From Thermodesulfobacteriota bacterium (GTDB lineage Bacteria; Desulfobacterota; Binatia; Binatales; Binataceae): DNA of 64,000 nt. A program made the position numbers and the translations under genes. The stretch is taken from assembly GCA_046728175.1 (NCBI GenBank), contig JBKPEA010000003.1, positions 3,517 through 67,516 on the forward strand, in the 5' to 3' direction. This document shows positions 5,720 through 29,649 of this stretch, piece after piece; position 1 is the first letter of the stretch; every line of letters starts with the position of its first letter. Below the pieces are notes generated by a model. The model worked only from the letters and a program-made list of their open reading frames with translations. It did no database searches and was not told the DNA's origin.

Positions 5720-5950
5720 TCAGATGCCGAGCAGCTTGCGCAGCTGGACCGGACTGAACCCGACCACCGACTGGTCGCCCACCCGAATTACAGGGACGGC
5801 GCGGAATCCAGTGTTGATAAGCTCGTCGCGGGCCGCGGGATCGTCACCAATGTTCCGTTCCACGAACGGAATGCCGTGCTGCAAGAGAAAGCTCATCGCG
5901 GCGTGGCACGCCGATCAGCCGTGGCTGGTGAAAATCGTTACTTGTGGCAT
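5720..5950 (-). CDS. glutaredoxin/NrdH-like thioredoxin-fold selenoprotein (UxxC), in-frame UGA at 5915-5917
   Basis: Hand translation: MPQVTIFTSHG-[TGA]-SACHAAMSFLLQHGIPFVERNIGDDPAARDELINTGFRAVPVIRVGDQSVVGFSPVQLRKLLGI*. The TGA occupies the first-Cys position of CxxC. GAGGA sits 5-6 nt before the ATG. selB and a Sec-type selD are in the same window. The gene is absent from the ORF track because both halves are under 60 aa. Confidence 0.7.
5899..5913 (-). other. candidate SECIS-like hairpin starting 1 nt after the UGA of the Grx-like gene
   Basis: The mRNA reads UGA-U-CGGCGU-GCC-ACGCCG, a 6-bp GC-rich stem with a 3-nt loop. It is shorter than, and sits closer to the UGA than, the fdhF-type SECIS, so this is only a candidate. 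Confidence 0.3.
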
Positions 5951-6325
5951 GTAAGTCCTCGGTTGGCACCGCCGCCTGGACAAATGCATCCGTGGCAGTC
6001 GCGGATCATTTTGCGAAGCGTGCGGCGCCGCCCTTGCAGGCGCACGATTTCATCCGTCATTTGGGAAAGCTTGGCCTCTGCCTTGCGGATAATGGGTCCG
6101 CATTCCCAGGTCGACTTTACTCCCAGCGTGAGCAGTTCCTGTATCTCACGCAGGGAGAAGCCCAACCCTTTCGCATCCTTTACAAACCGCAACCGGTCAA
6201 TCACCTCGTCCGAGTAGTTTCGATAGCCGGATACCGAGCGGCCGCCCTATCAAGCCTTTGCGCTCATAGAAGCGCAGGGTATCGACGCTGACCCCGGTCC
6301 TGTGCGCTAGCCGTCCAATCGTCAT
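5938..6325 (-). pseudogene. MerR-family (heavy-metal/redox-responsive type) transcriptional regulator with an apparent frameshift near 6236-6249
   Basis: From ATG 6325 the frame reads MTIGRLAHRTGVSVDTLRFYERKGLIG, then runs into a stop. A shifted frame continues RSVSGYRNYSDEVIDRLRFVKDAKGLGFSLREIQELL to RDCHGCICPGGGANRGLTCHK*. The span is 388 nt, not a multiple of 3. The listed ORF 5938-6204 is the C-terminal part only. Confidence 0.7.
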
Positions 6326-6334
6326 TGGTTTACA

Positions 6335-6366
6335 ACCATAAACCTTGGAGTATAGTCCTGGGTCAA
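6335..6366 (-). promoter_or_regulatory. MerR-type promoter: TTGACC, 19/20-nt spacer containing an imperfect dyad, then TTATGG/TATGGT
   Basis: The minus strand reads cTTGACCcaggactatactccaaggTTTATGGTtgtaaaccaATG. The dyad is ACCCAGGACT-AT-ACTCCAAGGT (6363-6342), symmetric at 7 of 10 positions. The -10 element lies about 10 nt from the merR-like ATG. Confidence 0.5.
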
Positions 6367-6488
6367 GATCAAAGAAGTCGTTGATAGCCTATTCTAACAG
6401 CAATTTGCGTCGTATAAAGTAGGAGAGCTGATCCGGTGGCGCGGCCGGCCGCGGGTTGTTAGCTAATTTGCGGAAACTCCGGGGTTGA

Positions 6489-13203: not shown

Positions 13204-16200
13204 ATGCTTCAGCTCCACTACGCGAATTGCTTTGAAAATCTGCTTGGGCCGCTGGCGCAGGCCGTTGAGCTAGATCAGCGGCGGGACCCACTCGCAACGC
13301 TGCCAATTATCGTTCCCAACCGCGCGGTCGAGCAATTCGCGAAATATGGAATCGCGGAGCGGCTCGGAGTCGCGGCCAACCTCGCGTTCCCGTTTCTGCG
13401 CCGTTATCTGGCCCGCATTGCAGAGCAGGCCGACTCAAGCATCCGGGTGCTCGAAGTTCCGCACTTGCAGGTCGCGCTATTCCAGTGCCTGCGCAGCGAC
13501 GCGCATCTCGACGGGTTGCGAGCGGTTCGCGAATACTTTGCGGCGGCCAACCCCGCCACTGACGCTTTAGGAGAACTGCGGCTCTTCGAGCTGGCCGGCC
13601 GGGTAGCACACCTGTTCCAGGAATATTCGATTTCGCGAAGCGGGATGCTCCACGCGTGGAATTCGGGAAGCTCGCCTGCAAGGTCGGACGAGGAGCTCTG
13701 GGAGCGAACGCTGTGGACCCTGGTTTTCGACCGCGAGCGAGCCGCGCTTGGCGCCCCCCTGGCCTTCGACACCGAGCATCGGTGGATGCTTCTGCCGCAG
13801 GCGCTCGCCGCGATTCCCGATAGCCGCCTGCGCGACGTGCTCCCGCCCGTGCTCCATGTTTTCGGCCTCGCGTCGCCGGGCCGTGTTTTCCTGGAGATCT
13901 TCGCGCGCGTGGGCAGACTCGCCGACCTTTTGGTCTATGCGCTGAACCCGTGCATGGAGTTTTGGGAAGACGTCGATGATTCATCGGCGGCCCGTGCTTC
14001 GACCTGGCGCCGCCGCGCGGAAAAGGTGGGCACGGCGCTCGAGGACGGCGAGGACCCCTTTGACCTCGCAACCCCGAGCGACACACGGGCGCTGCAGCTG
14101 TGGGGACGGCCGGGTCGCGAATACATCCGGATGCTCAATGAACTGACCCAGTGTGATTTTCAGCCGCACTTCACGCACGTCGGGGGCGCGTCACTTCTGG
14201 CGCGTCTGCAAGAAGACATTTTGGTGCGCGCGGCGAGCGCTCCCGGCGACCGAAAGAACCGGGTAGAACCACGGCCCCAGAGTATTCGCTTCATCGGCGC
14301 GCCCGGGCTCCGGCGCGAGGTAGAGATCATCGCCAACGAAATTCTCCGGGTGGTCTCCGATGCGGAAGGATCCGGCTACTCGCCGTTGCGGTTTCACGAG
14401 GTGGCGGTTCTGGTTCCCGATGCGGTGGCCGACGCTTATCTGCCGCAGATCGAAAGCGTGTTCGCTTCGCAGTTCGCCATTCCAGTTGAAATAGCCGGGC
14501 GGCAGTTTTACCGATGCCGAGCCGCGGAGGCGCTCGCGCTGCTGATCAAGTTTCCGCTAGGGCGAGCGACGCGCGCGGAAATCCTGCGCCTCCTGACTCA
14601 CCCCGTGATTGCCGGCACCGAGGGCGAGCTGGATATCGATCGCCTGAGCGCGTGGTGCGAGGAACTGGGGGTTTTCTTCGGGGTGGATGCGAGCGATCTA
14701 GCCGACACGTACGTGCCGGCCAACCTTTTTCAATGGGATCAGGCCCTGACGCGCATTACCTTGGGCGCCTTTATGGAGGGCGGCCTGGGCGAAGGTCACA
14801 ATCTATATCAAAGCGAGTCGGGTGCATTACTGCCGTTAACTCTGCTGCAGGAGGAGGTCCCGGCGGCGGCGCGCTTTCTCAAAACCGCGCGGACCCTTCT
14901 GGCCGACACGCGCGAGATCCGATCGCATCGCCTCTCGCTGTCGGATTGGGCTTTCCTGCTCGCCGAGCTCATTGGCACCTATGTTCAGGCCCGCGATCCC
15001 GAGGATCAGTCGTTTCGCGACCAATGCTTCGAAATTCTTGAGGCGATGGGCTCGCTCCGGACCGATCCGGTCAGCTATGAGGTCGCCCATTCCTTCGTAA
15101 GCGCCTCGCTCTCGGAGCGCGCTGCCCGGCAAGGCGGGTTTTCGGGTCGTGGGGTCGCAGCCGGCTCGCTTGGGACCCTTCGCGCGCTGCCGTTTCGGGC
15201 GATCTTCGTGATGGGCATGAACGAGGTGGCCTTTCCGGAACGAGATCGTCGCGAGCCGACCGACCTTCGGCTTGCGCGCCGCCACCCGGGTGACATCAGT
15301 CCGCCAGAGCGCGACCGCTACTTATTTCTGGAATCGATTCTGGCGGCACGCGAGCGAATCGCTTTTTCATGGGTCGAGCGCGATCCGCAGACCGGAGATC
15401 GACTGGAGCCTTCCACCACGGTGCGTGAGCTTCAATCTATCCTGCGAGGTTACCTGGACACTCCGCAGCAGCTTACCGAGCTGACGACCTTCCATCCGGT
15501 AAGCAGCTACGACCCCGACTACTTTCCCGATCTGGCGGCCGTCGCGCGGCCGGATTCCAGTGCGCGTCGTGACCTCGTGAGCTTTGACTCGGCCGCACGC
15601 TGCGGTGCCCGGATGCGTCGACTGCGCGAGCATCTAGCCGTGGGTTCTCAAGACCACATATTGCCGGCGCGAGCTGCGCTCCTGGAGAGACTTGACCCGG
15701 GCGTACGCGCACGTCTGGCGGAAAGTCTCGGATCCTTCGAATTGCCGATCAAATCCGTGTCAAACGCCGACGAGCTCGATTTACCCCTGGCCGCGGTACG
15801 GCGTTTCCTCGAGTGCCCCCTCCAGGGCGCGGCGAGATATGCGCTGGGGATGGTGGAGGATGACGGTCCGCCGGAGGATGCGGTCGACGAGCCAATCGCG
15901 CTGTCGAGACTCGATCATGCCCTGATTTTGCGCGAAGCATTCTGGACTGCCCGGGGTAAGCCGGAACTTTTCGTAGATGCTTACCGAGAAGCAATCGCCA
16001 CCGCGCAAATGAAGGGCGCCGCTCCTGCGGGGCCCTTCGCCGACGCCGCGATCGAGGCTGATTGCAAGCGCTTCGCGCGATGGTGCCGCGAACTGGATGC
16101 CAAGCGCCGCGACCTGGGCGAATGGCGAGTTTTCAGGATGGGCCGTGGCACCGAATCTTCCCGTGCCGACCGGGTCTTGCCGCCGTTGCGCCTTGATGTT

Positions 16201-16770
16201 TGCGCTATCGATCGCGAGGGTCGGGTGTTGGTTCGCAAAGTAAATCTGCATGGGTCGCTGGGAGCTTTTTCCCCGGCGCTCGACAGTTCGCTACGCCTGG
16301 TCACCCGCTCCAAGCCGAAACCGCAGGACTTTCTCGAACTGTTCATCGCGGCAATCGCACTGCGCGCCGCCGGTGAGCCGGTCGCGAAGAGGTTCGAGGC
16401 GCTGGTGCTCGGCGACCCTGCGAGAAACTCAACCAAGGCGGCCCTTTGGAGCAGAGGGCTCGGCACGCCGGTGCCCGACGCGGCACGCGAGTACCTCGCG
16501 CAACTGGTCGGCGAAATGACAACCCGTGCCCACGACTATTTCCTGCCGATCGAGGCGGTCGCGGAGGCTCGTCGCGCGATCCGACGCGGCAAGGACGCGC
16601 TCGACCGCATCGACAATATCCGCGAAGGCTTCGGTTCCTGCGCCTCGGACTACGGCCCGGTCCGCAACGCTCGCGACTATGAGCCGCCGGATGAACACGA
16701 GGTCGCCGCCATCATTGGACGGCGTTTCCAGCCGGTCGAGGCGATTTTCGAAGGCCGGGACGACGGGTGA
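13204..16770 (+). CDS. recC: exodeoxyribonuclease V gamma subunit
   Basis: 1188 aa. The N-terminus MLQLHYANCFENLL...IVPNRAVEQF parallels RecC. It is immediately followed by RecB-like and RecD-like genes. Confidence 0.85.
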   Translation: MLQLHYANCFENLLGPLAQAVELDQRRDPLATLPIIVPNRAVEQFAKYGIAERLGVAANLAFPFLRRYLARIAEQADSSIRVLEVPHLQVALFQCLRSDAHLDGLRAVREYFAAANPATDALGELRLFELAGRVAHLFQEYSISRSGMLHAWNSGSSPARSDEELWERTLWTLVFDRERAALGAPLAFDTEHRWMLLPQALAAIPDSRLRDVLPPVLHVFGLASPGRVFLEIFARVGRLADLLVYALNPCMEFWEDVDDSSAARASTWRRRAEKVGTALEDGEDPFDLATPSDTRALQLWGRPGREYIRMLNELTQCDFQPHFTHVGGASLLARLQEDILVRAASAPGDRKNRVEPRPQSIRFIGAPGLRREVEIIANEILRVVSDAEGSGYSPLRFHEVAVLVPDAVADAYLPQIESVFASQFAIPVEIAGRQFYRCRAAEALALLIKFPLGRATRAEILRLLTHPVIAGTEGELDIDRLSAWCEELGVFFGVDASDLADTYVPANLFQWDQALTRITLGAFMEGGLGEGHNLYQSESGALLPLTLLQEEVPAAARFLKTARTLLADTREIRSHRLSLSDWAFLLAELIGTYVQARDPEDQSFRDQCFEILEAMGSLRTDPVSYEVAHSFVSASLSERAARQGGFSGRGVAAGSLGTLRALPFRAIFVMGMNEVAFPERDRREPTDLRLARRHPGDISPPERDRYLFLESILAARERIAFSWVERDPQTGDRLEPSTTVRELQSILRGYLDTPQQLTELTTFHPVSSYDPDYFPDLAAVARPDSSARRDLVSFDSAARCGARMRRLREHLAVGSQDHILPARAALLERLDPGVRARLAESLGSFELPIKSVSNADELDLPLAAVRRFLECPLQGAARYALGMVEDDGPPEDAVDEPIALSRLDHALILREAFWTARGKPELFVDAYREAIATAQMKGAAPAGPFADAAIEADCKRFARWCRELDAKRRDLGEWRVFRMGRGTESSRADRVLPPLRLDVCAIDREGRVLVRKVNLHGSLGAFSPALDSSLRLVTRSKPKPQDFLELFIAAIALRAAGEPVAKRFEALVLGDPARNSTKAALWSRGLGTPVPDAAREYLAQLVGEMTTRAHDYFLPIEAVAEARRAIRRGKDALDRIDNIREGFGSCASDYGPVRNARDYEPPDEHEVAAIIGRRFQPVEAIFEGRDDG

Positions 16771-19700
16771 TGGACCGCTACTACTGGCGACCGGATATCG
16801 TCGACCAGATTCCCCTGGACGGCCACTGCGTCATTGAGGCCAGCGCCGGGACTGGCAAAACCTTCACCATCGAACACCTGGTGGTCGAGATTCTGCTCAA
16901 CTCGGACACCCGCCTCGACCAAATCCTGGCGGTGACCTTCACGGAGAAAGCGGCCGGCGAATTGCGCGCACGCATCCGCGCGGCGATCGAAAAACCGCTT
17001 CATACTGAAATGGAGGCGGATCCGGGAACACGGGTACCGCTCGATCTCGAGAAGGCGGGACGGCTGGAACGCGCGCTGTTTTCTTTCGAACGCGCGCCGA
17101 TTCACACGATCCATAGCTTCTGCCATCGGATGCTGGGCGATTTTGCGGTTCTAAGTGGCACGCGTCTGAAGCTCGAAGTTGCGGATGCGCGAACGATGTT
17201 CCACGAGGCGTTCCGCTCGGAGCTGCGCGAGCACTTCGCAGGAGACGAATGGATGGGCCCGCTGCTCGAGGAATGGCTCGCCGATGATCGCGGCAGCGAT
17301 CGGTTGGAGGCCCTCCTGTTTGATGCCAATCAGCGCCACTATCTCGATTCGGACGCGTCCGCGGGAAACTCGGTCGCGGCCGATGAACTCGTGGCAAGTT
17401 TCGACGATTCGAGGCTCCGGCACGAACTGCCCCCGACCCGCGCGAAAGGTGCATCGTACTCGGATCTCGAAACCATCGCCGAGGCGATCAAACGTTCGGG
17501 CCACGATACGTTGCGTCTGCGCCGCGAACTTGATGCCCAGGTGCTCGCGCGAATAGCGGCGTTGCAGCACTTGCCCGGTTTGTCGCCGGAGACCCGGCGA
17601 TTCCTCAACGCCGTTGGGCGGGTGGAGTTCGCCGTGCCCTTGGAAGCGCGCATCATCGATAATTTTCTTCCTGCGGTCGCGCGGCGGCTCGATCGCATCA
17701 AGCGCGAACGCGGTGTTATCGATTTCGGCGATATGCCGCGCTGGCTATGGTCTGCGCTCGAAGGACCCCAAGGTCCCCGGCTGGCGACGATTTTGCGCGA
17801 ACGATTCCACGTCGGGCTGGTCGATGAATTCCAGGATACCGACGATCTTCAATGGCGTATCTTTCGGAGGATATTCGTCGAAGGGGTCGGCACGCGGTTG
17901 CTGGTAGTTGGCGATCCGAAGCAAGCAATCTATGGTTTTCGCGATGCGGACGTTTTTACTTACCTCAAAGCGAAAACCGAGCTGCTGGAAAAGCACGGTG
18001 CCGCCTTCGTTCCATTGGTCAAGAACTTCCGCTCGACCGCCGAGGCGATAGATGCCGTCAATCTGATTTTCGCGCCCACTCCAGCGCCGGCCTTTTTTGT
18101 GGACGGCGACATCCGCTACGACCATCCGGTCTCGTGCGGCTTCTCTTCGACCGGTGCAGACCAGAGTCGATCGCCGATAAAACCGATCTCGATCTTCAGC
18201 CTGCCTGCGGGCGCGAAGCTTCCGGCGCGGCGTTATCGTGCAATGCTCGGCAGGAAAATCGCAGCGAGCTTGAAGAATCTGCTCGACGGAAACCCGCCGC
18301 CTGGGGGCACCCGCCAGACTTCGTCAGGCGCGCCTGACGTTTTCGTGCTGACCCGCACCCTGATGGAAAGCCGCGAGATGGCCGGGTACCTGCGCGATGC
18401 CGGCGTCCGGTACGCGTTCTACAAGCAGGATGGTCTATTCAAGACTCGTGAGGCAGGCCACATCCTCGACCTGCTGCGCGCCATCGCGGAGCCGCATCGG
18501 CGCTCGCATCGTCTCAAGGCCTGGTCGACACCGTTTTTCGACGTAGCGCTACGCGAACTGCCGGGTCTCGAGGAGGTCGCGCCTACCCATCCGCTGATGG
18601 CGCGATTGCTGCAATGGAAAGCGCTTGGCGACCAGAGGCGGTTCGCGGAGCTGTTCGGCGCAATGCTTCATGAGAGCGGCCTGGCGGCGCGTGAGTTGCT
18701 GCTCGTGGATTCCCACAGAGAGCTGACCAATTACGAGCATGTTTTCGAGATCCTTCTGGAGAGAGCTTTCTCTGCCACTCCCGACCTTTTCGACCTGATT
18801 CAGATGCTTGCGAGCTGGGTGGATGGAGATGATCTACCGCCCGGCGAAAGTCCCGGGGTTCAGCGGCTCGAAAGCGAGCGCGATGCTGTTCAAATAATGA
18901 CGGTGCACAAGGCTAAGGGCCTCGAGGCGGATATCGTGGTGCTGTTCGGAGGATATGCGCACGCGCCGCCGGAACGTGATCGGGTGTCGGTGTTCCACAC
19001 CGACGGCGAAAGAAAGGTGATTGCAGGTCAGTCTGCTCGAAATGCGGCGAAGGAGCAGCTTACAAATGAAGAAAGCGCTGAAAACGAACGGCTGCTCTAC
19101 GTCGCTCTGACTCGCGCGAGAAAGAGACTTTACCTGGCAATGTTTCCGCCAGGAGCGACTCTGCGCAACCTCGACGGCTATTACCGCAAGTTGAACGAGC
19201 GGCTTAACGTGCTCGCGGCCGATAAGGGCGAATCTGGCAGCGGGTTTGAGAAACTGGTCGAGATAGTTCCGCTGCGCATGGGCACGGCCCGACCAGCGCA
19301 AGCGGAGTTGGCGAACGCCAACGCCGCCGGCTTCGAGGCTTTGCCCGAGGGGTTACTAAGTGACGACCAGGATCATCAGCTGGCGCGATCGCTTCGCGAG
19401 ATCGTGGCTCGTCACCGCGCACTTTCTATCGATTCCTACACCTCCCTACAGCGACGGGCCACGCTCGCCGACCAGGCAGACCCATCGATTTTCAAATATG
19501 ACGTCGACCCCGCCGGGACGGAGCCTCCGCCGCGTGACGAGCTGGGCGGCGGGCGAGCGGTGGGAGTCTTTCTGCACGAAGTAATCGAACGGCTCGATCT
19601 GCGCGCGCTGGCCAATGCGCCCGACTTCGAGACCTGGATGGCGAGGACTGAGGTGCGGGAGACAATCGCCGCGAGTGCGCGCCGCCATCAGGTGTCGCAG

Positions 19701-20234
19701 GCCGAGCCGGGGCTCGCGCGTGGAGCACAGATTGTATTTAACGCGTTGCGCTCGCCGCTGGCGCTGGGCAACGAAATCGTTCCGGCGTTGGTGAATTGTG
19801 AAGGCACCCGCGAGATGGAGTTTACCTTTCCGATTCCGGACCGAGACCATCCGCTACTTGGTGCGGGGTGCGGCGGCGCCTGGACCATCGACCGCGGGTT
19901 GCTGGTCGGATTCGTTGACTTCGTCTTCCGGTTTCGCGATCGGACTTATTTTGCGGATTGGAAGAGTGACCTCCTGCCTTCCTATGATGCGGCGACCATC
20001 GCCGCACACGTGTCCGATCACTATTTGATTCAGGCACGCATCTACACGGTGGGAATTGTCCGCTTGTTGCGGATTCACGGCCCGAGCGAGTACGAAGAGC
20101 GGTTTGGCGGTCTGGTCTATGTTTTCCTGCGCGGCGTTAAGCCGAATGGCGACGGCCGCGCGGGGGCCTATTTTCATCGGCCGAGCTGGGAGGAGATCGT
20201 CGGCTATGAGCGCGATCTGATGACGGCGGGGTAG
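16770..20234 (+). CDS. recB: exodeoxyribonuclease V beta subunit (UvrD-type helicase plus PD-(D/E)xK nuclease)
   Basis: Walker A ASAGTGKTFT, helicase motifs (VDEFQDTD, TVHKAKGLE) and a C-terminal nuclease region (GFVDFVF...ADWKSD). TGATG overlap with recC; a GTG at 16767 is an alternative start. Confidence 0.9.
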   Translation: MDRYYWRPDIVDQIPLDGHCVIEASAGTGKTFTIEHLVVEILLNSDTRLDQILAVTFTEKAAGELRARIRAAIEKPLHTEMEADPGTRVPLDLEKAGRLERALFSFERAPIHTIHSFCHRMLGDFAVLSGTRLKLEVADARTMFHEAFRSELREHFAGDEWMGPLLEEWLADDRGSDRLEALLFDANQRHYLDSDASAGNSVAADELVASFDDSRLRHELPPTRAKGASYSDLETIAEAIKRSGHDTLRLRRELDAQVLARIAALQHLPGLSPETRRFLNAVGRVEFAVPLEARIIDNFLPAVARRLDRIKRERGVIDFGDMPRWLWSALEGPQGPRLATILRERFHVGLVDEFQDTDDLQWRIFRRIFVEGVGTRLLVVGDPKQAIYGFRDADVFTYLKAKTELLEKHGAAFVPLVKNFRSTAEAIDAVNLIFAPTPAPAFFVDGDIRYDHPVSCGFSSTGADQSRSPIKPISIFSLPAGAKLPARRYRAMLGRKIAASLKNLLDGNPPPGGTRQTSSGAPDVFVLTRTLMESREMAGYLRDAGVRYAFYKQDGLFKTREAGHILDLLRAIAEPHRRSHRLKAWSTPFFDVALRELPGLEEVAPTHPLMARLLQWKALGDQRRFAELFGAMLHESGLAARELLLVDSHRELTNYEHVFEILLERAFSATPDLFDLIQMLASWVDGDDLPPGESPGVQRLESERDAVQIMTVHKAKGLEADIVVLFGGYAHAPPERDRVSVFHTDGERKVIAGQSARNAAKEQLTNEESAENERLLYVALTRARKRLYLAMFPPGATLRNLDGYYRKLNERLNVLAADKGESGSGFEKLVEIVPLRMGTARPAQAELANANAAGFEALPEGLLSDDQDHQLARSLREIVARHRALSIDSYTSLQRRATLADQADPSIFKYDVDPAGTEPPPRDELGGGRAVGVFLHEVIERLDLRALANAPDFETWMARTEVRETIAASARRHQVSQAEPGLARGAQIVFNALRSPLALGNEIVPALVNCEGTREMEFTFPIPDRDHPLLGAGCGGAWTIDRGLLVGFVDFVFRFRDRTYFADWKSDLLPSYDAATIAAHVSDHYLIQARIYTVGIVRLLRIHGPSEYEERFGGLVYVFLRGVKPNGDGRAGAYFHRPSWEEIVGYERDLMTAG

Positions 20235-20241
20235 CTTTGGC

Positions 20242-22341
20242 GTGGATGGGGCGCACGACAAATACCAGCGACTGGCCTTGCGCGGCGCGTGGCGCCGATT
20301 TGAGATTTCTGGCGGGGGGCGAACCGGTGAACTCGAAAACCGGCTGCGTGGGCTGGAGGAAAAGGTTGGAGACCTCAACCTCGAGCGCGACACGGTTCAT
20401 CTGGCGGCGGAATTAGCGGCGCTGGAGCCGAATCTGGACGATGACGCGCGCTTCGCGTTGATCGTCTTGACCATCGTGACGCTGGCCGCACTCGCTCAGG
20501 GCAGTACCCGTTTTCCGGTCACCGGCGAGATCTCTCGCGAGCCGATGCATCACATGCTCGGTGCCCTGATCGGGACCGACGCCGCCGCAAGCGAGAACAT
20601 TCGTCGTTCGATACAAGACCTGCTTCTCAACCGGCGGGTCGCCAAAGTAATCGGCGGTAGGGAACTGGATCGGACGCCCTTGCTGTTTCTTGAGCCGTTC
20701 ATTTCACACGCGAGGTCACGCGCCCTCGAAAGGCGGCTGGTGGACGGTATCACGGCGCGGCGAAAACGCGCGGAGCCTTTCGAGGCGGCGTGCATCCAGC
20801 GCGCACTAGATGATGTCATCGAACGACCGGCCTTCGCCAGCGACGCGTGTATCGAACTCTCCACCGAGCAGCTAAGCGCGGTCCGAACCGCGGTTGGCTC
20901 TCCGCTGGCGCTGATTTCGGGGGGGCCCGGGACCGGTAAGACGTCGATCGTGGTAGCGATCCTTCGGGTACTCGCGCGGCTTAAAGTGCCGCCCCGCGAA
21001 ATTACGCTCGCCGCGCCCACCGGGCGCGCAGCGTTCCGCCTGCGCGATGCGGTGACCGCGTCGCTGGTGCGGATTGCCACACCATCGGCAGAAGATGGGC
21101 AGCTTTTGGTGGCGGCCCTCGATGCCGTGACGGTTCATCGGCTGCTCGGCTATTCCCCCGATCGCGGGATATTTCTTCACCATCGCAACAATCCGATCGC
21201 GGCGCGCGCGGTGATCGTTGACGAAGCTTCGATGCTCGACCTCGCGATGATGGAACGCCTGGTCGGAGCAGTAGGAGCCGAGGCGCAACTCGTATTTCTG
21301 GGCGACGTTGATCAATTGCCGTCGGTTTCCGCGGGTGCGGCGTTCCGCGATCTGGTCCCGCTGGATCGCGTCCATCCGCTCTCCAACTCAAGCGTACGGC
21401 TGACGCGCAACTATCGAACCCCGAGCAGTAGTCCGAGCGGCGTTGCGATCGTCGAGGTATGTCGGCGCATCAACGCGGGCGACCGGACGCTGGCATCGGG
21501 GGCTGATTCGGCGGGAAGACACGCGCCACAGGTGCGATCGAAAGTTGACGAGATTGAATTCAAAGGCGTGGAGCTGTTGTCTACTCCGCCTTGGGGGCTA
21601 GATGAGTTTTTGGATCGATGGGAGCGCGAGCAGGTCGTTGGGGAGGCCGCAATCGATTCCCTAGTCAACCGTGAGTATGCGATCAGCGACGCAACCGTTT
21701 CCGAGGAGGATCGCAGGAGCCTGACGCGGTTATGCGACTACCGGGCCAGAACCAGGATCTTGTGTGCGACGCGTGTGGGGTTGTCGGGCTCGGATGCGAT
21801 CAACGCGCGCATGCATCGCCGGTTTTTGCACGACCGAGCGGGACGAAGGATACGCGTAGCACCGATGATCGCAGGGGACCCGGTAATCGTCGTGCGCAAT
21901 GACTACGACCGGTCGCTGTTCAACGGCGATCAGGGTGTGGTTGTCAATGCGCTCGATTCCGACGGAGGGCGGTACGCTGCGGTGCTCTTTGTTAGGGAGG
22001 CCGATTTTGCAGTGTTTCGCCTCGATATGCTAGGCGACCTGCTCGAACTGGGTTATGCGACGACCGTACATAAGGCGCAGGGCTCCGAGTTCGATATTGC
22101 CGCCGTCATGCTTCCCGAGCGCGATCTGCCTGTGCTTACGCGCGAACTGCTCTACACGGCCGTGAGCCGATGCCGCAGCGGGGTGGTTATTGTGGGCGAG
22201 CCCAGCCTGCTGGTGGCCAGCATCGCGCGAAAGGCGGAAAGATATTCTGGTGTTGCGGCCGAGTTAGCAGCGCGGTTTTCGCCTGCGGGTCCGCAGCAGC
22301 TGGAATTGCCTCTACCTGGTTCTCGTTCCCGCGATCCATAG
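20242..22341 (+). CDS. recD: exodeoxyribonuclease V alpha subunit
   Basis: Walker A SGGPGTGKTS, Walker B VIVDEASMLD and a C-terminal TVHKAQGSEF motif. Third gene of the recCBD operon. GTG start; the N-terminal extent is uncertain. Confidence 0.85.
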   Translation: MDGAHDKYQRLALRGAWRRFEISGGGRTGELENRLRGLEEKVGDLNLERDTVHLAAELAALEPNLDDDARFALIVLTIVTLAALAQGSTRFPVTGEISREPMHHMLGALIGTDAAASENIRRSIQDLLLNRRVAKVIGGRELDRTPLLFLEPFISHARSRALERRLVDGITARRKRAEPFEAACIQRALDDVIERPAFASDACIELSTEQLSAVRTAVGSPLALISGGPGTGKTSIVVAILRVLARLKVPPREITLAAPTGRAAFRLRDAVTASLVRIATPSAEDGQLLVAALDAVTVHRLLGYSPDRGIFLHHRNNPIAARAVIVDEASMLDLAMMERLVGAVGAEAQLVFLGDVDQLPSVSAGAAFRDLVPLDRVHPLSNSSVRLTRNYRTPSSSPSGVAIVEVCRRINAGDRTLASGADSAGRHAPQVRSKVDEIEFKGVELLSTPPWGLDEFLDRWEREQVVGEAAIDSLVNREYAISDATVSEEDRRSLTRLCDYRARTRILCATRVGLSGSDAINARMHRRFLHDRAGRRIRVAPMIAGDPVIVVRNDYDRSLFNGDQGVVVNALDSDGGRYAAVLFVREADFAVFRLDMLGDLLELGYATTVHKAQGSEFDIAAVMLPERDLPVLTRELLYTAVSRCRSGVVIVGEPSLLVASIARKAERYSGVAAELAARFSPAGPQQLELPLPGSRSRDP

Positions 22342-23798: not shown

Positions 23799-25874
23799 GT
23801 GACAGCCGTGGCGAACTCACAGATCGATCAGTTGTGCATCAATACGATCCGCACTCTGTCCATCGATGCGGTCCAGCAGGCCAACTCCGGTCATCCGGGA
23901 ACCCCGATGGGAATGGCGCCCTTGGTCTATTGCCTTTGGCAGCGTTTCCTGCGGTTCGATCCGAAGGATCCGATCTGGCCTAACCGGGACAGATTTGTGC
24001 TATCTGCCGGGCATGCGTCGATGCTGCTCTACTCGATGCTGCATCTGGCGGGAGTGGTCGCGGTCGACCCGCAATACGAGATAGTAGGCAGACCGACCGT
24101 CTCGCTCGATGACATCAAACATTTTCGCCAGCTCGACAGCCGTTGCCCTGGTCATCCGGAGTATCACTGGACTTCCGGCATCGAGACGACCACCGGGCCC
24201 CTGGGGCAGGGCGTCGCGACCAGCGTCGGGATGGCGATCGCCGGGCTCTGGCAAGCGAATCATTTCAACCGCCCCGATTTCGAGATGTTCAACTACAACG
24301 TCTACTCGCTATGCGGCGATGGTTGCATGATGGAGGGCGTCTCGAATGAGGCCGCGTCGCTGGCCGGCCATTTAAAGCTTCCCAACCTGTGCTGGATCTA
24401 CGACAACAACCACGTAACCATCGAAGGCCACACCGATCTCGCCTTCAGCGACGATGTTGCGACACGCTTCATCGGCTACGGATGGAACGTCACGCGCGTC
24501 GGCGACGCGAACGACCTCGAAATGCTCGAACGCGCGCTCCGCGTATTTCTGGACACCAACGACCGCCCGACCCTGATCATCGTCGACAGCCATATCGGAT
24601 ACGGGTCACCGCACAAGCAGGATACGAGCGCCGCCCACGGAGAGCCGCTCGGAGAAGAGGAAATCAAGCTGGTCAAGCGCAACTACGGATGGCCGGAGGA
24701 TGCGAAATTCCTGGTGCCGGACGGAGTACGCCAGAACTTTGATGCGAACGTTGGCAAGCGCGGTCATCAGTGCAGCTCCGAGTGGAAGGGCAAGCTTGCG
24801 CAGTACGCAACCAAGTTCCCCGACCTGGCCGAGCATATTCATCGGATGCAGCGGCGCGAGCTGCCCGATGGATGGGACAAGGAAATTCCGAGTTTTCCCC
24901 CGGACTCGAAGGGGATCGCGAGCCGCGACTCCTCGGGCACGGTCCTCAACGCAATCGCGAAGAATGTGCCTTGGGTGATGGGTGGCGCCGCCGACCTCTC
25001 GCCCTCCACCAAAACGCGGCTTACCTTCGCGGGGGTCGGCGATTTCAATGCCACCAACCGTAGCGGTCGAAATTTTCATTTCGGAATCCGCGAGCACGCG
25101 ATGGGCGCGGTACTCAACGGGATGGCGCTGAGCAAGATCCGTCCCTTCGGTAGCGGCTTTCTGATCTTCAGCGACTATTGCAAGCCCGCAATTCGCCTCG
25201 CCGCGATAATGGAAGTGCCAGTCATCTATGTGTTCACGCACGATTCGATTGGGGTCGGCGAAGACGGCCCGACCCATCAACCGATCGAACAGATCATAGG
25301 ACTGCGCGCGATCCCGAACCTGATCGTGCTGCGGCCCTGCGATGCAAACGAGGTGGCTGAGGCATGGCGGGTGGTCATGCAATTGCAACACGAGCCCGCT
25401 TGCCTGATCTTGAGCCGCCAGGCACTGCCGACGCTCGATCGGACGAAATATGCGCCCGCCAGCGGTGTGGCCAAAGGCGCTTACGTCCTGGCTGACGCTG
25501 CCGGCGGCAAGCCCGAGGTGATCCTGCTGTCAACCGGAAGTGAAGTTTCACTCTGCGTCGAGGCATTCGAGAAGCTCAAGGTGGACGGAGTTCGCGCCCG
25601 GGTGGTGAGTATGCCGTCGTGGGAGCTCTTCGAACGGCAGCCGGAAACCTATCGCTCGCAGGTGCTGCCACCCGAGGTGCGGGCGCGGGTGTCGGTCGAG
25701 CAGGCATCGCTCGTAGGATGGTCCTATTATATTGGCGCGGGTGCACATGGAATCGGAATGCACACCTTCGGTGCGTCCGCGCCGTTAAAGGCGTTGCTGA
25801 AAAAATTCGGCTTCACTCCCGAGAAGGTCGTAGAAGCCGCCAAGGAAGCCATCGCCAGGAACGGGAGGATTTGA
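23799..25874 (+). CDS. tkt: transketolase
   Basis: QANSGHPGTPMGMAP ThDP motif, GDGCMMEG, and typical length (691 aa). Confidence 0.95.
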   Translation: MTAVANSQIDQLCINTIRTLSIDAVQQANSGHPGTPMGMAPLVYCLWQRFLRFDPKDPIWPNRDRFVLSAGHASMLLYSMLHLAGVVAVDPQYEIVGRPTVSLDDIKHFRQLDSRCPGHPEYHWTSGIETTTGPLGQGVATSVGMAIAGLWQANHFNRPDFEMFNYNVYSLCGDGCMMEGVSNEAASLAGHLKLPNLCWIYDNNHVTIEGHTDLAFSDDVATRFIGYGWNVTRVGDANDLEMLERALRVFLDTNDRPTLIIVDSHIGYGSPHKQDTSAAHGEPLGEEEIKLVKRNYGWPEDAKFLVPDGVRQNFDANVGKRGHQCSSEWKGKLAQYATKFPDLAEHIHRMQRRELPDGWDKEIPSFPPDSKGIASRDSSGTVLNAIAKNVPWVMGGAADLSPSTKTRLTFAGVGDFNATNRSGRNFHFGIREHAMGAVLNGMALSKIRPFGSGFLIFSDYCKPAIRLAAIMEVPVIYVFTHDSIGVGEDGPTHQPIEQIIGLRAIPNLIVLRPCDANEVAEAWRVVMQLQHEPACLILSRQALPTLDRTKYAPASGVAKGAYVLADAAGGKPEVILLSTGSEVSLCVEAFEKLKVDGVRARVVSMPSWELFERQPETYRSQVLPPEVRARVSVEQASLVGWSYYIGAGAHGIGMHTFGASAPLKALLKKFGFTPEKVVEAAKEAIARNGRI

Positions 25875-25935
25875 GAAGCCTCCAACGCGACGGCAGTCGA
25901 ACACTAACTCCTGGAGCGGTTAAGGAGAGACACCA

Positions 25936-26952
25936 ATGCAGATGGGCATGATTGGCCTCGGCCGAATGGGCGCGAACATGGTACGACGGCTGCTCAAGGG
26001 CGGTCACGAATGCATCGCGTTCGACATGAACAAGAGCGTAGTTGCGGAATTGGTCAAGGAGGGTGCGGTCGGCGCCGCATCACTCGATGAGTTGACCAGT
26101 AAGCTCAAAAAGCCGCGCGTCACATGGATGATGGTTCCGGCCGGGGTGGTGGAAGAGACCTTGGCGGACCTGAACAAACGCTTTGAGAAAGACGACATCA
26201 TCGTCGATGGCGGCAACTCCTACTACATCGACGACCTGCGCCGCGCGAAGATGCTGCGGACCAAGGGCATTCACTATGTCGATTCCGGCACCAGCGGTGG
26301 AGTGTGGGGACTCGAACGCGGTTATTGCCAGATGATCGGTGGCGAGCCCGACGTGGTGAAGCATCTCGATCCGCTGTTCAGCACACTGGCACCGCCGTTC
26401 GACTCGGCACCGCGCACGCCGGGCCGCGAAAAGTCGAAGCCGACCACCGCGGAACACGGCTACCTGCATTGCGGCGGCAATGGCGCGGGCCATTTCGTAA
26501 AGATGGTCCACAACGGAATCGAATATGGCATCATGGCTGCATACGCGGAGGGGCTGAACGTCCTCCATCACGCCAACGTCGGCAAGCTTAAGCAGGCGGC
26601 TGACGCGGAAACGACCCCGCTGCGCGACCCCGAGCACTATCAATACGATCTCAACCTGACCGAGATTGCCGAAGTATGGCGGCGCGGAAGCGTGATCGCA
26701 TCGTGGTTACTCGACCTTACGGCGCAGGCGTTGCTTGATGATCCCAAGCTTGAGAAGTTTGCCGGACGGGTTTCAGATTCGGGCGAAGGGCGCTGGACGG
26801 TGGATGCCGCAATCGATGAGGGCGTGCCGGCCTACGTTCTGAGCGCGGCGTTGTATGAGCGCTTCAGCTCGCGCGGCGCAGCTGACTTTGCGGACAAGCT
26901 GCTCTCGGCGATGCGCTATGAATTCGGCGGGCATTTGGAGAAGTCGAAGTAG
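25936..26952 (+). CDS. gnd: 6-phosphogluconate dehydrogenase, decarboxylating (short, Gnd-like form)
   Basis: Rossmann N-terminus MIGLGRMGANMVRRL, GGNSYY, and SGTSGGVWGLERGYCQMIGG. Confidence 0.85.
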   Translation: MQMGMIGLGRMGANMVRRLLKGGHECIAFDMNKSVVAELVKEGAVGAASLDELTSKLKKPRVTWMMVPAGVVEETLADLNKRFEKDDIIVDGGNSYYIDDLRRAKMLRTKGIHYVDSGTSGGVWGLERGYCQMIGGEPDVVKHLDPLFSTLAPPFDSAPRTPGREKSKPTTAEHGYLHCGGNGAGHFVKMVHNGIEYGIMAAYAEGLNVLHHANVGKLKQAADAETTPLRDPEHYQYDLNLTEIAEVWRRGSVIASWLLDLTAQALLDDPKLEKFAGRVSDSGEGRWTVDAAIDEGVPAYVLSAALYERFSSRGAADFADKLLSAMRYEFGGHLEKSK

Positions 26953-26993
26953 GTAGTGGCCGCTGCTCTGGCCAACCAGGTACATCGACCTGA

Positions 26994-27017
26994 CCTCTTA
27001 CCGAAACGGGCAAGAGG
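26994..27017 (+). terminator. hairpin after gnd (cctctt...aagagg with an inner ccg-aaa-cgg)
   Basis: A 6-bp outer stem plus an inner stem, located 40 nt after the gnd stop. No U-tract. Confidence 0.25.
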
Positions 27018-27127
27018 CCGGGGAGCTTTGGATTCCTACGCTTCCGGTTCGCCTCTCTTTTGACGGAAGACAGCAGCGGTCAGTTGATTGCAAAGAACCG
27101 TGATGCAACGGGAATAGGGAAAGACGC

Positions 27128-28663
27128 ATGGCGATTGCACACGAGAGTCCCCTCACTACAGCTGCCAAAGCGCGCGCCGGTGACCCGTGCGTCGTGGTGA
27201 TTTTCGGAGCAGCGGGCGATCTTACCAAGCGCAAGTTGGTTCCCGCGCTCTACAACCTGCTGATGCAAAAGCTGCTACCCGACCGGTTTGCGGTGGTTGG
27301 AGTGACTTCCGCCGAATATTCGGATGCTCAATTTCGCGAAAAGCTCTCAACCGATATCCGCGAATTCGCCACCACCAAGGTGGACGACCAGCTGTGGAGC
27401 TGGTTTGACGAACGCGTGCACTACGTGGCCGGCGATTTTAACGACGCGAATCTATACCAGAAGCTGAAAGCGTCGCTGGCGGCGGTTGACAAGGAGCAAC
27501 ACACGTCCGGAAACTTCCTCTTCTATCTCGCGACCGCGCCGCAGTTTTTCGGCGAGATAATCGGCCAGCTTGGTCGCGCCGGGCTTACCACCGAGGCAAA
27601 CGGCCAGTGGCGCCGCGTGATTATCGAAAAACCGTTCGGCCGCGACCTCGATTCGGCGCGCGCACTCAACAAGGAAATCAAGAAGACCCTGGATGAGGGC
27701 CAGATCTACCGCATTGATCATTACCTCGGCAAAGAGACCGTGCAGAACATGCTGGTGTTCCGGTTTGGCAACGGAATCTTTGAGCCGGTGTGGAACCGCC
27801 GCTATATCGACCACGTGCAGATAACCGCCGCCGAGACGGTCGGGGTCGAGCTGCGCGGCGGCTACTATGATCAATCGGGGGCGCTGCGCGACATGGTGCC
27901 CAACCACACGCTGCAGCTGGTCGCGATGACCGCGATGGAACCGCCGATTTCGTTCGACTCCGAAGCGGTCCGGGATGAGAAAGCCAAGGTCTTGCACGCG
28001 ATCCAGACCCTCTCGCCGGAAGCGGTTCTAACTCACGCGGTGCGCGGTCAATACGGTCCTGGAACGACGGACGGCAAGCGCGAGCCCGGCTACCGCACGG
28101 AAGCGCAGGTCAATCCGCAATCCTCGACCGAGACTTTCGTGGCGGTGCAGCTGGCGATCGATAATTGGCGATGGGCGGGGGTGCCGTTTTATGTCCGGAC
28201 CGGCAAGCGGCTGGCGAGGCGGGTTACCGAAATTGCGATTCAGTTCAAGCGCGCGCCCAAGCTGCTGTTCCAGGAGGCCGGCATAGACGAGATGTCCGCC
28301 AACATGGTGGTGATGCATATCCAGCCGGACGAGGGAATCTCGCTACGCTTCAGCGCCAAAGTTCCGGGGCCGACCGTGACGCTGGGCGCGGTCAACATGA
28401 ACTTCGAATATTCGCAGTACTTCGGCGCGGCACCGGCCACCGGATACGAGACACTGCTGCTCGACTGCATGATCGGCGATCCGACGCTGTTTCAGCGCGA
28501 CGACATGGTCGAAGCGGGATGGAGGGTGGTGGAACCAATCCTCGATGTATGGAAAGCACTGCCGCCGCGGGATTTCCCGAATTACGCGTCGGGCACCTGG
28601 GGTCCGTCCGAATCGGATCATCTGTTGGAACGCGAAGGCCGTCACTGGCGCGTCATTGGCTAA
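27128..28663 (+). CDS. zwf: glucose-6-phosphate dehydrogenase
   Basis: [13 protein letters not shown] dinucleotide motif and the RIDHYLGKE active-site motif. Confidence 0.95.
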
Positions 28664-29649
28664 TGATCCTCGCGGGTGATATCGGCGGGACTCACGCACG
28701 AATCGCCACTTTCAACCTCGACGGCGGGCGGGTCAGGCTCGTCAGCGAACAAATCTATCCCTCGCACGAGCATCAGAATCTCGAAAGTGCGCTCCGCGCG
28801 TTCCTGACCACTCATCACGTAACGGCGACCACGGCGTGTTTCGGCGTTGCGGGACCGGTGCGCAAGGGAATTGCGGTTCTGCCCAATCTCGGATGGACCG
28901 TGGATGCATCGTCGCTTGCGCACGAGATCGGAATCGAACGCGCCGGCGTCATCAACGATCTCGAAGCCAACGCCTACGGTATCGCTGCGCTCGATGCTTC
29001 CGACTTAAGCGTCATCAACCGTGGTGCTGCGGATACAACCGGCAATGCGGCCGTTATCTCCGCTGGAACCGGCCTAGGCGAGGCGGGCCTCTACTGGGAC
29101 GGAAAAATCCTGCGGCCCTTTGCGTGCGAGGGCGGTCACGCCGATTTCGCGCCGACCGACCCGCTCCAGACCGAAATGCTCGGGTGGTTGCAGAAACAGT
29201 ACACGCATGTGAGCTGGGAACGTGTGCTCTCGGGCAACGGACTTTTCAATGTCTATCGCTTCCTGCGCGACACGGGGCGGGGCGAGGAACCGGCCTGGCT
29301 GACGGAAGAACTGAAGCATGACGACCCGCCCCCGGTCATCACCAGAGCGGCGCTAGAAAAAAGGTCGCCGCTATGCGAAATGGCGCTCGATCTGAATATC
29401 GTCCTGTTGGGCGCCGAGGCCGCGAACCTCGCGCTCAAGATCATGGCCACCGGAGGTGTTTACCTGGGCGGCGGGATTGCTCCGCGCATTCTCAGCAAGC
29501 TTAAAGAACCAGCCTTCATGGGCGCATTCACCAACAAAGGACGGATGAGCAATATGTTAAGCGCGATACCCGTCAAGGTCATCCTCAACGACAGCGCCGC
29601 CTTGTTGGGCGCGGCCCGCTGCGCCGCACTAACGGCCGGATTGCTCTGA
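28663..29649 (+). CDS. glk: glucokinase
   Basis: [18 protein letters not shown]-binding N-terminus. The start overlaps the zwf stop (TAATG). The listed ORF 28165-29649 carries a spurious 5' extension inside zwf. Confidence 0.9.
   Translation: MILAGDIGGTHARIATFNLDGGRVRLVSEQIYPSHEHQNLESALRAFLTTHHVTATTACFGVAGPVRKGIAVLPNLGWTVDASSLAHEIGIERAGVINDLEANAYGIAALDASDLSVINRGAADTTGNAAVISAGTGLGEAGLYWDGKILRPFACEGGHADFAPTDPLQTEMLGWLQKQYTHVSWERVLSGNGLFNVYRFLRDTGRGEEPAWLTEELKHDDPPPVITRAALEKRSPLCEMALDLNIVLLGAEAANLALKIMATGGVYLGGGIAPRILSKLKEPAFMGAFTNKGRMSNMLSAIPVKVILNDSAALLGAARCAALTAGLL

Follow-up and report, generated by a model that had tools for sequence, protein, structure and literature searches.

A MerR-type regulator and a thiol or selenol redoxin as a conserved gene pair in Candidatus Binataceae, with a frameshifted regulator in one genome

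Activation by DNA distortion has its textbook example in the MerR-type regulators, which normally control a metal pump, a reductase or a drug transporter. In the mer operons of Gram-positive bacteria, merR itself comes first behind the regulated promoter, and the NmlR/AdhR-type proteins are MerR-family activators that control a few redox or detoxifying enzymes instead of a metal pump. The locus described here resembles both, having the regulator first and a redox enzyme behind it, and both of its parts are of known kinds, the one a MerR-family sensor whose promoter is of the distortion type, the other a UxxC seleno-redoxin. It lies in a 64,000-nt stretch of Thermodesulfobacteriota DNA that GTDB places in the Binataceae (the window; assembly GCA_046728175.1, contig JBKPEA010000003.1, positions 3,517 to 67,516 of the forward strand), and consists of a merR-like gene followed by a small glutaredoxin gene, grx. 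The reading favoured here, with a probability of about 0.7, is that the locus represents a two-gene operon which Candidatus Binataceae, a family of soil bacteria, conserve and in which a metal-sensor-type MerR switch is joined to a redoxin, and that the regulator is broken in this genome.

The promoter elements in the window are as follows.
6366-6361, minus strand: -35 hexamer TTGACC
6340-6335, minus strand: -10 hexamer TATGGT, 20 nt past the -35 (19 nt with TTATGG as the -10)
6363-6342, minus strand: operator, a 22-bp pseudo-palindrome with half-sites ACCCAGGACTA and TACTCCAAGGT, covering the last 3 nt of the -35 and occupying the spacer
6326-6329, minus strand: predicted transcription start zone, 0-3 nt 5' of the ATG, placed by the usual distance from a -10 to a start

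The pattern TTGACY-N20-TANNNT has a single match in the window, with 0.12 expected. Symmetry in the 22-mer extends to 8 of 11 positions, a level that shuffles of the same letters reach in 0.08% of trials (p ~8e-4), and no second copy of the operator is found within the 64 kb when up to 3 mismatches are allowed. The regulator ATG (6325-6323) follows the -10 after 9 nt, tgtaaacca, that contain no Shine-Dalgarno (SD) sequence.

Comparison with relatives gives this arrangement its main support. Loci were gathered from GTDB species genomes (12) and from metagenomes (80; loci are numbered with L and proteins with P below); those from GTDB genomes are labelled Candidatus Binataceae, "delta proteobacterium" and similar, and where a protein source is named, it is Binataceae or Binatus. 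In the set of 73 loci that have the merR 5' end complete and sufficient upstream sequence, TTGAC[CT]-N20-TAnnnT is matched in 72, the remaining one having CAGGAT as its -10, and the spacer is 20 nt long in every family locus compared. Information content is concentrated in the promoter itself: the -35 has 1.86 bits per position, the spacer 1.60 and the -10 1.39, as against 0.32 in the 25 nt upstream and 0.34 in the 6 nt downstream; within the -10, T1 (1.89 bits), A2 (2.0) and T6 (2.0) are nearly invariant. The dyad is kept in a single register, the 22-mer that begins at the "AC" of the -35, with a mean symmetry of 8.07 of 11 positions, and other registers reach at most 5.2. Each family locus has one operator, always 5' of merR, and none of 68 non-family MerR loci has it. 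The initial annotation, made from the letters of the window, had proposed a MerR-type long-spacer promoter with a central dyad at this place and had named conservation of the dyad in relatives as a check; the promoter stands where it was drawn, and both it and the dyad recur throughout the family.

The regulator start codon lies 6-10 nt 3' of the -10 in 66 of 72 family loci, and near-clade loci have no SD between the two, in agreement with the earlier remark on a start codon close to the -10 with no SD. Such a distance fits a leaderless or near-leaderless mRNA, as far as sequence can indicate. Far-clade loci have GAGG right after the -10, as in L004:2490-2500 (TATCGT-GAGG-ttcag-ATG); this block is SD-like but lies 5' of the expected transcription start, and may be usable only on read-through from a co-directional upstream gene. 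In three loci (L012, L099 and L117), an insertion of 88-103 nt parts the conserved promoter from merR. In L012, an ATG 8 nt past the -10 opens a 27-codon open reading frame (ORF) whose TGA overlaps the merR GTG (GTGA), maybe a leaderless upstream ORF.

A generic sigma-70 scan, which is blind to 20-nt spacers, reported two other sites instead. TTTATA-16-TAGAAT (6418-6391, minus strand) was rejected as the main promoter as it is conserved in the closest relatives only, and TTTACA-16-TATAGT (6329-6356, plus strand) was rejected as it is not conserved past the near clade. The nearest relatives that conserve both sites all share a divergent MlaE-like gene. The first block reads TATAAA on the plus strand and may serve that gene. 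The second, with 10 of 12 matches, overlaps the operator and is aimed at the same gene (ATG at 6489); if active, it would be repressed by the regulator, much as MerR acts on the divergent merR promoter. Position 6359 is A in the window and in two nearly identical contigs, L162 and L164, and C in all other near-clade operators (CCCAGG versus CCCCGG). The change leaves the symmetry count unaltered, and since the A also occurs in L164, where the regulator is intact, it is not linked to the frameshift described next.

The regulator gene is interrupted in the window.
6325-6197, minus strand: merR-like 5' fragment in the helix-turn-helix (HTH) frame, 42 codons, ending at a premature TGA (6199-6197)
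6242-6238, minus strand: frameshift site, the lone remaining GCCGC unit, located by alignment to L081 and others
6237-5938, minus strand: merR-like 3' part in the +1 frame, with the wing, dimerisation helix and Cys positions and the stop TAA (5940-5938); PF09278, MerR-DNA-bind

The frame that opens at ATG 6325 encodes MTIGRLAHRTGVSVDTLRFYERKGLIGRP..., and the remainder (SVSGYRNY...WEC...RDCHGCICPGG...TCHK), which reads SVSGYRNYSDEVIDRLRFVKDAKGLGFSLREI...WECGP...RDCHGCICPGGGANRGLTCHK, continues in the +1 frame, so that the HTH and MerR-DNA-bind domains of the window itself stand in different frames. Homologs are intact proteins of 130 residues with "GLIxRPRRxxSGYRNY" at this place. In DNA alignment the closest relatives read GGGCG-GCCGC-GCCGC-xxGG and the window reads GGGCG-GCCGC-TCGG; the 5 nt missing are one unit of a tandem GCCGC repeat, adjoining 6242-6238, and are the sole lesion in the gene. 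The continuous regulator ORF described in the initial annotation is therefore not present: the frame stops after 42 codons. The 88-residue regulator ORF appears in public protein databases as P0041, and the 88-residue "MerR" entries there are truncated calls that result from the frameshift.

Once the missing unit is restored, the encoded protein belongs clearly to the MerR family, with Pfam scores of 72.8 for MerR_1 (cutoff 21.6), 56.4 for MerR (28.2) and 52.0 for MerR-DNA-bind (25.4). Its subfamily is less distinct. NCBIfam scoring of the repaired window protein and of intact near-clade and far-clade members gives near-equal scores of 83-105 bits for the MerR, CueR, ZntR and CadR-PbrR models, whose curated cutoffs are 143-168. 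The Hg(II)-MerR model TIGR02051 (cutoff 150.85) gives 100.3 bits for the repaired window protein, 105.6 for P0001 and 104.1 for P0076; the ZntR models TIGR02043 and NF007069 (cutoffs 167.95 and 143) give 92.9-102.9 and 93.9-104.6; CueR TIGR02044 (cutoff 147.4) gives 92.6-100.3; and CadR/PbrR TIGR02047 (cutoff 151.45) gives 83.0-86.3. SoxR TIGR01950 (cutoff 116.9) is the weakest of the sensor models at 53.4-59.4 bits, and the NmlR model (cutoff 175) gives 46-53. Placement among the MerR subfamilies, one of the checks that had been proposed, succeeds at the level of the family and falls short of every named subfamily. The best matches among solved structures are Tn501 MerR (5crl) and Bacillus MerR (4ua1), followed by CueR and CadR.

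The window regulator has C77 (in WEC), C112, C115 and C117 (in DCHGCIC) and C128 in its tail. Counted over 71 distinct family sequences, C77 and C112 are present in all 71 and C115/116 (C-x-G-(x)-C) in 70, while C117 (12 of 71) and C128 (13 of 71) are clade-specific. The earlier expectation that the cysteines of the regulator would be conserved in its family is borne out for three of the five, C77, C112 and C115/116, and fails for the other two. C77 aligns with MerR C82 and CueR S77, and C112 with MerR C117 and CueR C112. According to published structural work on CueR and ZntR, Cys at position 77 marks sensors of divalent metals and CueR has Ser there; the family has Cys in 71 of 71 sequences, not Ser.

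Each of the described sensors shares some of these features. Hg(II)-MerR provides the best structural sequence matches (5crl, 4ua1) and the top or near-top NCBIfam match, has a long-spacer, dyad-type promoter, and is alike in that the family has exactly three family-wide cysteines, two of them aligned with the Hg ligands C82 and C117. It differs in its spacer, 19 bp as against 20 bp in the family, and in its cargo, for there is no merA, merT or merP near the pair. The Tn501 ligand set C82/C117/C126 is not matched in full, as the third conserved Cys follows C112 by 2-3 residues, not 8. The likeness to ZntR lies mainly in the DNA. E. coli PzntA, CTTGACTCTGGAGTCGACTCCAGAGTGTATCCT, which 5414 of 5426 complete E. 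coli genomes contain at 100% identity, 36 nt 5' of zntA, likewise has a TTGAC[CT] -35, a 20-bp spacer and a 22-bp (11+11) palindrome that begins at the "AC" of the -35. Ungapped identity to PzntA is 22/32 for the window promoter and 23/32 for the far-clade consensus TTGACTCTGGACTATGGTCAAGGGTCTATCGT. In the protein, Cys77 of the family is equivalent to ZntR C79, but the C114/C115/H119/C124 arrangement of ZntR is absent; moreover, the ZntR target is a P-type ATPase rather than a redoxin, and the ZntR gene is unlinked to it, whereas the family regulator is first in what may be its own leaderless operon. SoxR is a MerR-family activator with a long-spacer promoter, and the C-x2-C-x-C of the window resembles the start of its CX2CXCX5C motif; however, SoxR lacks an equivalent of C77, and the third and fourth motif cysteines are not conserved in the family. 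NmlR-type proteins lack the metal-site cysteines C77 and C112.

The pairing of the two genes is conserved. merR lies directly 5' of grx in 83 of the 87 loci with enough upstream sequence and in 12 of 12 genome loci, so the adjacency that had been put forward as a check holds. No third gene is conserved across loci; neighbours differ between subclades, most of them in convergent orientation. The near-clade pair stands between a divergent transporter operon of MlaE/MlaF/MlaD type and a convergent DUF6285-APH-acyl-CoA dehydrogenase group; far-clade loci have different neighbours. The gene downstream of the pair in the window is convergent, in keeping with the earlier proposal that the redoxin is the only cargo. 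A co-directional ORF of ~190 residues, ~30 nt past grx, occurs in 23 far-clade loci only (for example L133:1752-2333), and may be a third operon member in that subclade. The locus is also without nrdHIEF context, its neighbours being merR, MlaE-like and DUF6285 genes with no nrd genes among them.

The features of the redoxin gene are these.
5950-5720, minus strand: NrdH-like glutaredoxin gene, 76 codons, with a G-U-S-A-C active site (Pfam Glutaredoxin)
5917-5915, minus strand: TGA, codon 12, read as selenocysteine (Sec), aligned with the first Cys of CSAC
5960-5956, minus strand: GAGGA, SD of grx, inside the 3' end of merR and 5 nt before the ATG
5917-5863, minus strand: putative bacterial selenocysteine insertion sequence (SECIS), an interrupted hairpin of 20 bp with the UGA at its start, minimum free energy -22.7 kcal/mol

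The gene reads MPQVTIFTSHG, TGA and then SACHAAMSFLLQHGIPFVERNIGDDPAARDELINTGFRAVPVIRVGDQSVVGFSPVQLRKLLGI, with its stop at 5722-5720. Its ATG at 5950 precedes the merR stop (5940-5938), an overlap of 13 nt (5950-5938) rather than the 14 first counted, and an SD-like GAGG or GGAG stands at the same place in relatives. With U replaced by C, the protein scores 58.8 bits with Pfam Glutaredoxin PF00462 (cutoff 22.9). The best NCBIfam model is NrdH, TIGR02194, at 66.2 bits, under its cutoff of 85.75, with YruB next, and among solved chains 7c10 (labelled "Glutaredoxin") and NrdH 1h75 come closest. Like NrdH, the protein has a thioredoxin fold, 76 residues, a CxxC/UxxC-H-A motif, and GFRxxPV and xxGF motifs. 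As in described Sec-glutaredoxins, Sec takes the place of the N-terminal Cys (PMC9312934, table; PMC1088965). It differs from both groups in its (C/U)SAC motif, as opposed to CVQC or CPYC, and in being paired with a MerR-type regulator.

Homologs of grx are of two kinds, either 76 residues with GCSACH or annotated as 58 residues from an internal Met, and in the latter the DNA has TGA exactly at the first Cys codon. The TGA form is found in the window and in 12 relatives (L002, L081-L088 and L090-L092), 79-93% identical and with no other stops; the Cys form is found in some equally close relatives (L001, L089 and L093) and in all more distant ones. On this distribution, an NrdH-like redoxin with Cys is the ancestral cargo, from which the Sec variant of one subclade is derived. 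The pairing of a MerR-type switch with a selenol oxidoreductase was called unusual at the outset; that description overstates it, as the conserved partner is the Cys redoxin and Sec-glutaredoxins were already known. In L099 (1501-1719), the codon at the Sec/Cys position is TGG (Trp), which would abolish the active-site nucleophile.

The hairpin downstream of the TGA is kept in all Sec-type relatives: in 11 distinct sequences, 94.5% of the cells are paired, compared with 24-54% when the partners are slid. Over the same 59 nt, the mean fold is -24.8 kcal/mol in 11 Sec-type versus -15.1 in 68 Cys-type sequences, a comparison between sequences that are not phylogenetically independent and that differ in GC content (0.64 versus 0.57). 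Parts of the machinery needed to decode the codon are encoded elsewhere in the window.
49720-47534, minus strand: selB, Sec-specific elongation factor (TIGR00475, 354.6 bits, cutoff 242.25; Pfam SelB wing and beta-barrel)
47499-46426, minus strand: selD (TIGR00476, 358.9 bits, cutoff 125)

selD is directly downstream of selB, and neither is part of the merR-grx operon. selD has its own in-frame TGA (47424-47422; "CKAAG-U-AGKLGP"), which makes it a second selenoprotein gene in the window, and a GGUCC-GGC-GGACC hairpin occurs ~20 nt past this UGA. Neither selA nor tRNA-Sec occurs in the window; ARAGORN run over all of it finds nothing, and Rfam at gathering thresholds has no match there, a curated SECIS family included. 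Taken together, the alignment to CSAC, the 12 relatives, the hairpin and the presence of selB and selD make it very probable that the grx TGA is decoded as Sec, as first supposed.

Both interruptions of frame in this operon could have other explanations, which are best considered together. The frameshift might be an artefact of assembly or sequencing that hides an intact regulator of 130 residues, since it is the only lesion in the gene, its site is a GC-rich short tandem repeat, and a contig from Joint Genome Institute (JGI) sample 3300085324 (L164), 98.8% identical, has the intact GCCGCGCCGC and encodes ...GRPRRSVSGYRNY.... The deletion recurs, however, in independent material: a 7.2-kb contig from another JGI sample, 3300079549 (L162), is 100% identical to the window over 850 nt, the same 5-nt deletion included, and the 88-residue and 58-residue gene calls recur, within matching surroundings, on a 20-kb contig of a third sample (3300041966). 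Removal of an entire 5-nt repeat unit is also what replication slippage typically produces, unlike short-read error. An artefact is thus very unlikely; the occurrence of deleted and intact alleles on ~99%-identical contigs from different samples points to a recent loss-of-function mutation, not to an assembly error. The two frames do overlap, so that a single programmed +1 ribosomal shift at the GCCGC site would join them and rescue the regulator, and a second relative, L083, is also frameshifted nearby. Yet the joined product would be without two Arg of "RPRR", and one of these, R31, shows no variation in the family alignment sampled; there is no slippery or stimulatory motif; the L083 lesion is a different one, a 1-nt deletion at another site; and the intact allele at 98.8% identity marks the deletion as recent rather than as a conserved recoding site. 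With an invariant Arg lost and an intact allele in existence, programmed frameshifting was rejected as barely credible. A true stop at the grx TGA, leaving a pseudogene or a 58-residue product from an internal ATG, is what gene callers annotate; the regulator of the same operon is already broken, and the hairpin of the window is not significant when taken alone. Against this stand the exact coincidence of the TGA with the first active-site Cys of CSAC, the 11 preceding codons, which are conserved in frame with the Cys forms, and the recurrence of the TGA in the 12 relatives. The 58-residue product would be without the active site, the window encodes SelB and a Sec-containing SelD, and UxxC glutaredoxins are an accepted family of prokaryotic selenoproteins with experimental verification (PMC9312934, table; PMC1088965). 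A true stop is accordingly highly improbable, and many 58-residue "glutaredoxin" entries in databases (P0208, P0210 and others) are truncated calls caused by the Sec codon.

The frameshift, judged from these alignments, is a real loss-of-function allele, and the working switch that the initial annotation had seen here is probably non-functional in this genome. L083 (1122-1510, Ga0306922_10121007), a Sec-type locus, has an independent 1-nt merR deletion ~10 nt from that of the window, so that merR is frameshifted in 2 of 10 Sec-type loci with complete merR versus none of ~64 others. These two independent events could be due to chance or to a relaxation of selection on the regulator within the Sec-using subclade.

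Where the regulator is intact, several steps can be proposed by analogy with MerR, ZntR and CueR. A regulator dimer would occupy the 22-bp palindrome, with a three-Cys effector site formed by C77 of one subunit and C112 and C115/116 of the other. Effector binding would under-twist and kink the 20-bp spacer, enabling RNA polymerase to use the misaligned -35 and -10. The transcript would start at or just 5' of the ATG, and would thus be leaderless, and it would encode more regulator, in positive autoregulation, as well as the redoxin by translational coupling. The effector, the weakest step in this scheme, would most likely be a thiophilic divalent metal of Hg, Cd, Zn or Pb type, the best guess by analogy with described sensors. 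In the subclade of the window, Sec has very probably replaced the nucleophilic Cys of the CSAC site of the redoxin, with the UGA decoded by means of the hairpin that starts at the codon and of the SelB and SelD that the genome encodes. In the window itself, a 5-nt slippage deletion has inactivated the regulator, and weak, unregulated expression of the seleno-redoxin would be expected from a promoter left without its activator. The premature stop would also cost grx its translational coupling to merR, although grx retains its own SD.

The same architecture could serve a sensor of redox or thiol stress, in which a C112-x2-C115 disulfide or a SoxR-like Fe-S centre switches on the redoxin for thiol homeostasis. 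The sole cargo is, after all, a thiol-disulfide oxidoreductase, C112-x2-C115 is a CxxC motif, the C-x2-C-x-C of the window allele resembles the start of the SoxR motif, several subclades have four loop cysteines (for example CGGCICSGC and CGGVCECAKC), and metal-handling genes are missing from the vicinity. A four-Cys SoxR-like site is, however, no family feature, given the low counts of C117 and C128, and a reading of CHGCIC as a family-wide Fe-S motif was rejected on those counts and on the spacing to the fourth Cys, which is 10 and not 5. SoxR also scores weakest of the sensor models (53-59 bits), the invariant C77 occupies the Cys position of divalent-metal sensors that is Ser in CueR, and the operator is of ZntR likeness. 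A redox sensor, the main rival to a metal sensor, is possible but doubtful on this evidence.

Several observations weigh against parts of the metal-sensor operon as favoured here. The regulator scores under the curated cutoff of every metal-specific MerR subfamily, and its third conserved Cys is 2-3 residues past C112, compared with 7-9 in MerR, ZntR, CueR and CadR, so that the geometry of the site may differ. There is no metal transporter, pump or reductase near the merR-grx pair. The GAGG that far-clade loci have right after the -10, 5' of the ATG, would be in keeping with a leadered transcript of upstream origin. As for the Sec codon, the window hairpin alone is not significant (z -1.6), and no SECIS covariation is detected, in a test without power, given 94% identity among the Sec-type sequences and no variation at all in 13 of the 20 pairs. 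In its predicted apical loop, CUUU, the window hairpin also lacks the guanosine that bacterial SECIS elements typically have (PMC1088965). The L002-type apical loop is GACUUUA, and opening the top 3 bp in the window would give an 11-nt loop with a G.

The remainder of the window contains genes with no evident part in this system. Three large consecutive genes at 13204-22341 (plus strand) have RecC (Exonuc_V_gamma), RecB-like (UvrD helicase) and RecD-like (AAA_30/UvrD_C_2) domains and look like a recBCD-type operon. A pentose-phosphate/glucose cluster at 23799-29649 (plus strand) comprises transketolase, 6-phosphogluconate dehydrogenase-like, glucose-6-phosphate dehydrogenase and glucokinase genes.

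The searchable literature holds nothing relevant on the pairing of MerR with a glutaredoxin or on selenoproteins of Binatota. Four aspects of the system appear to be undescribed there: a subfamily below the model cutoffs with a short three-Cys loop, a redoxin as the only conserved cargo, a conserved, putatively leaderless and self-activating layout, and the restriction to Binataceae. A more far-reaching proposal, speculative and improbable as a whole, is that Binataceae have a distinct MerR subfamily with a minimal three-Cys site (C77'/C112/C115-116, with a 2-3-residue loop), whose entire output at the locus, from a leaderless operon that activates itself, would be a single NrdH-like redoxin of thiol or selenol type. 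The CxxC/UxxC protein would itself bind with high affinity, or reduce, the inducing soft metal(loid) or selenium species, with no pump or reductase involved, and loss-of-regulator alleles would segregate in natural populations of the Sec subclade.

For annotation, the public 58-residue "glutaredoxin" and 88-residue "MerR" calls are artefacts of the Sec codon and of the frameshift. For the MerR family, the whole conserved output here is a small redoxin, unlike the usual cargo, and a three-Cys sensor with an unusually short loop is a useful natural variant for the question of effector specificity. For Binatota, an uncultured phylum that has no genetics, the locus provides a phylogenetically supported operator and promoter with which a heterologous reporter is feasible. 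Finally, the presence of Sec and Cys redoxins, and of intact and frameshifted regulators, among close relatives amounts to a natural experiment on the gains and costs that selenocysteine and regulation bring.

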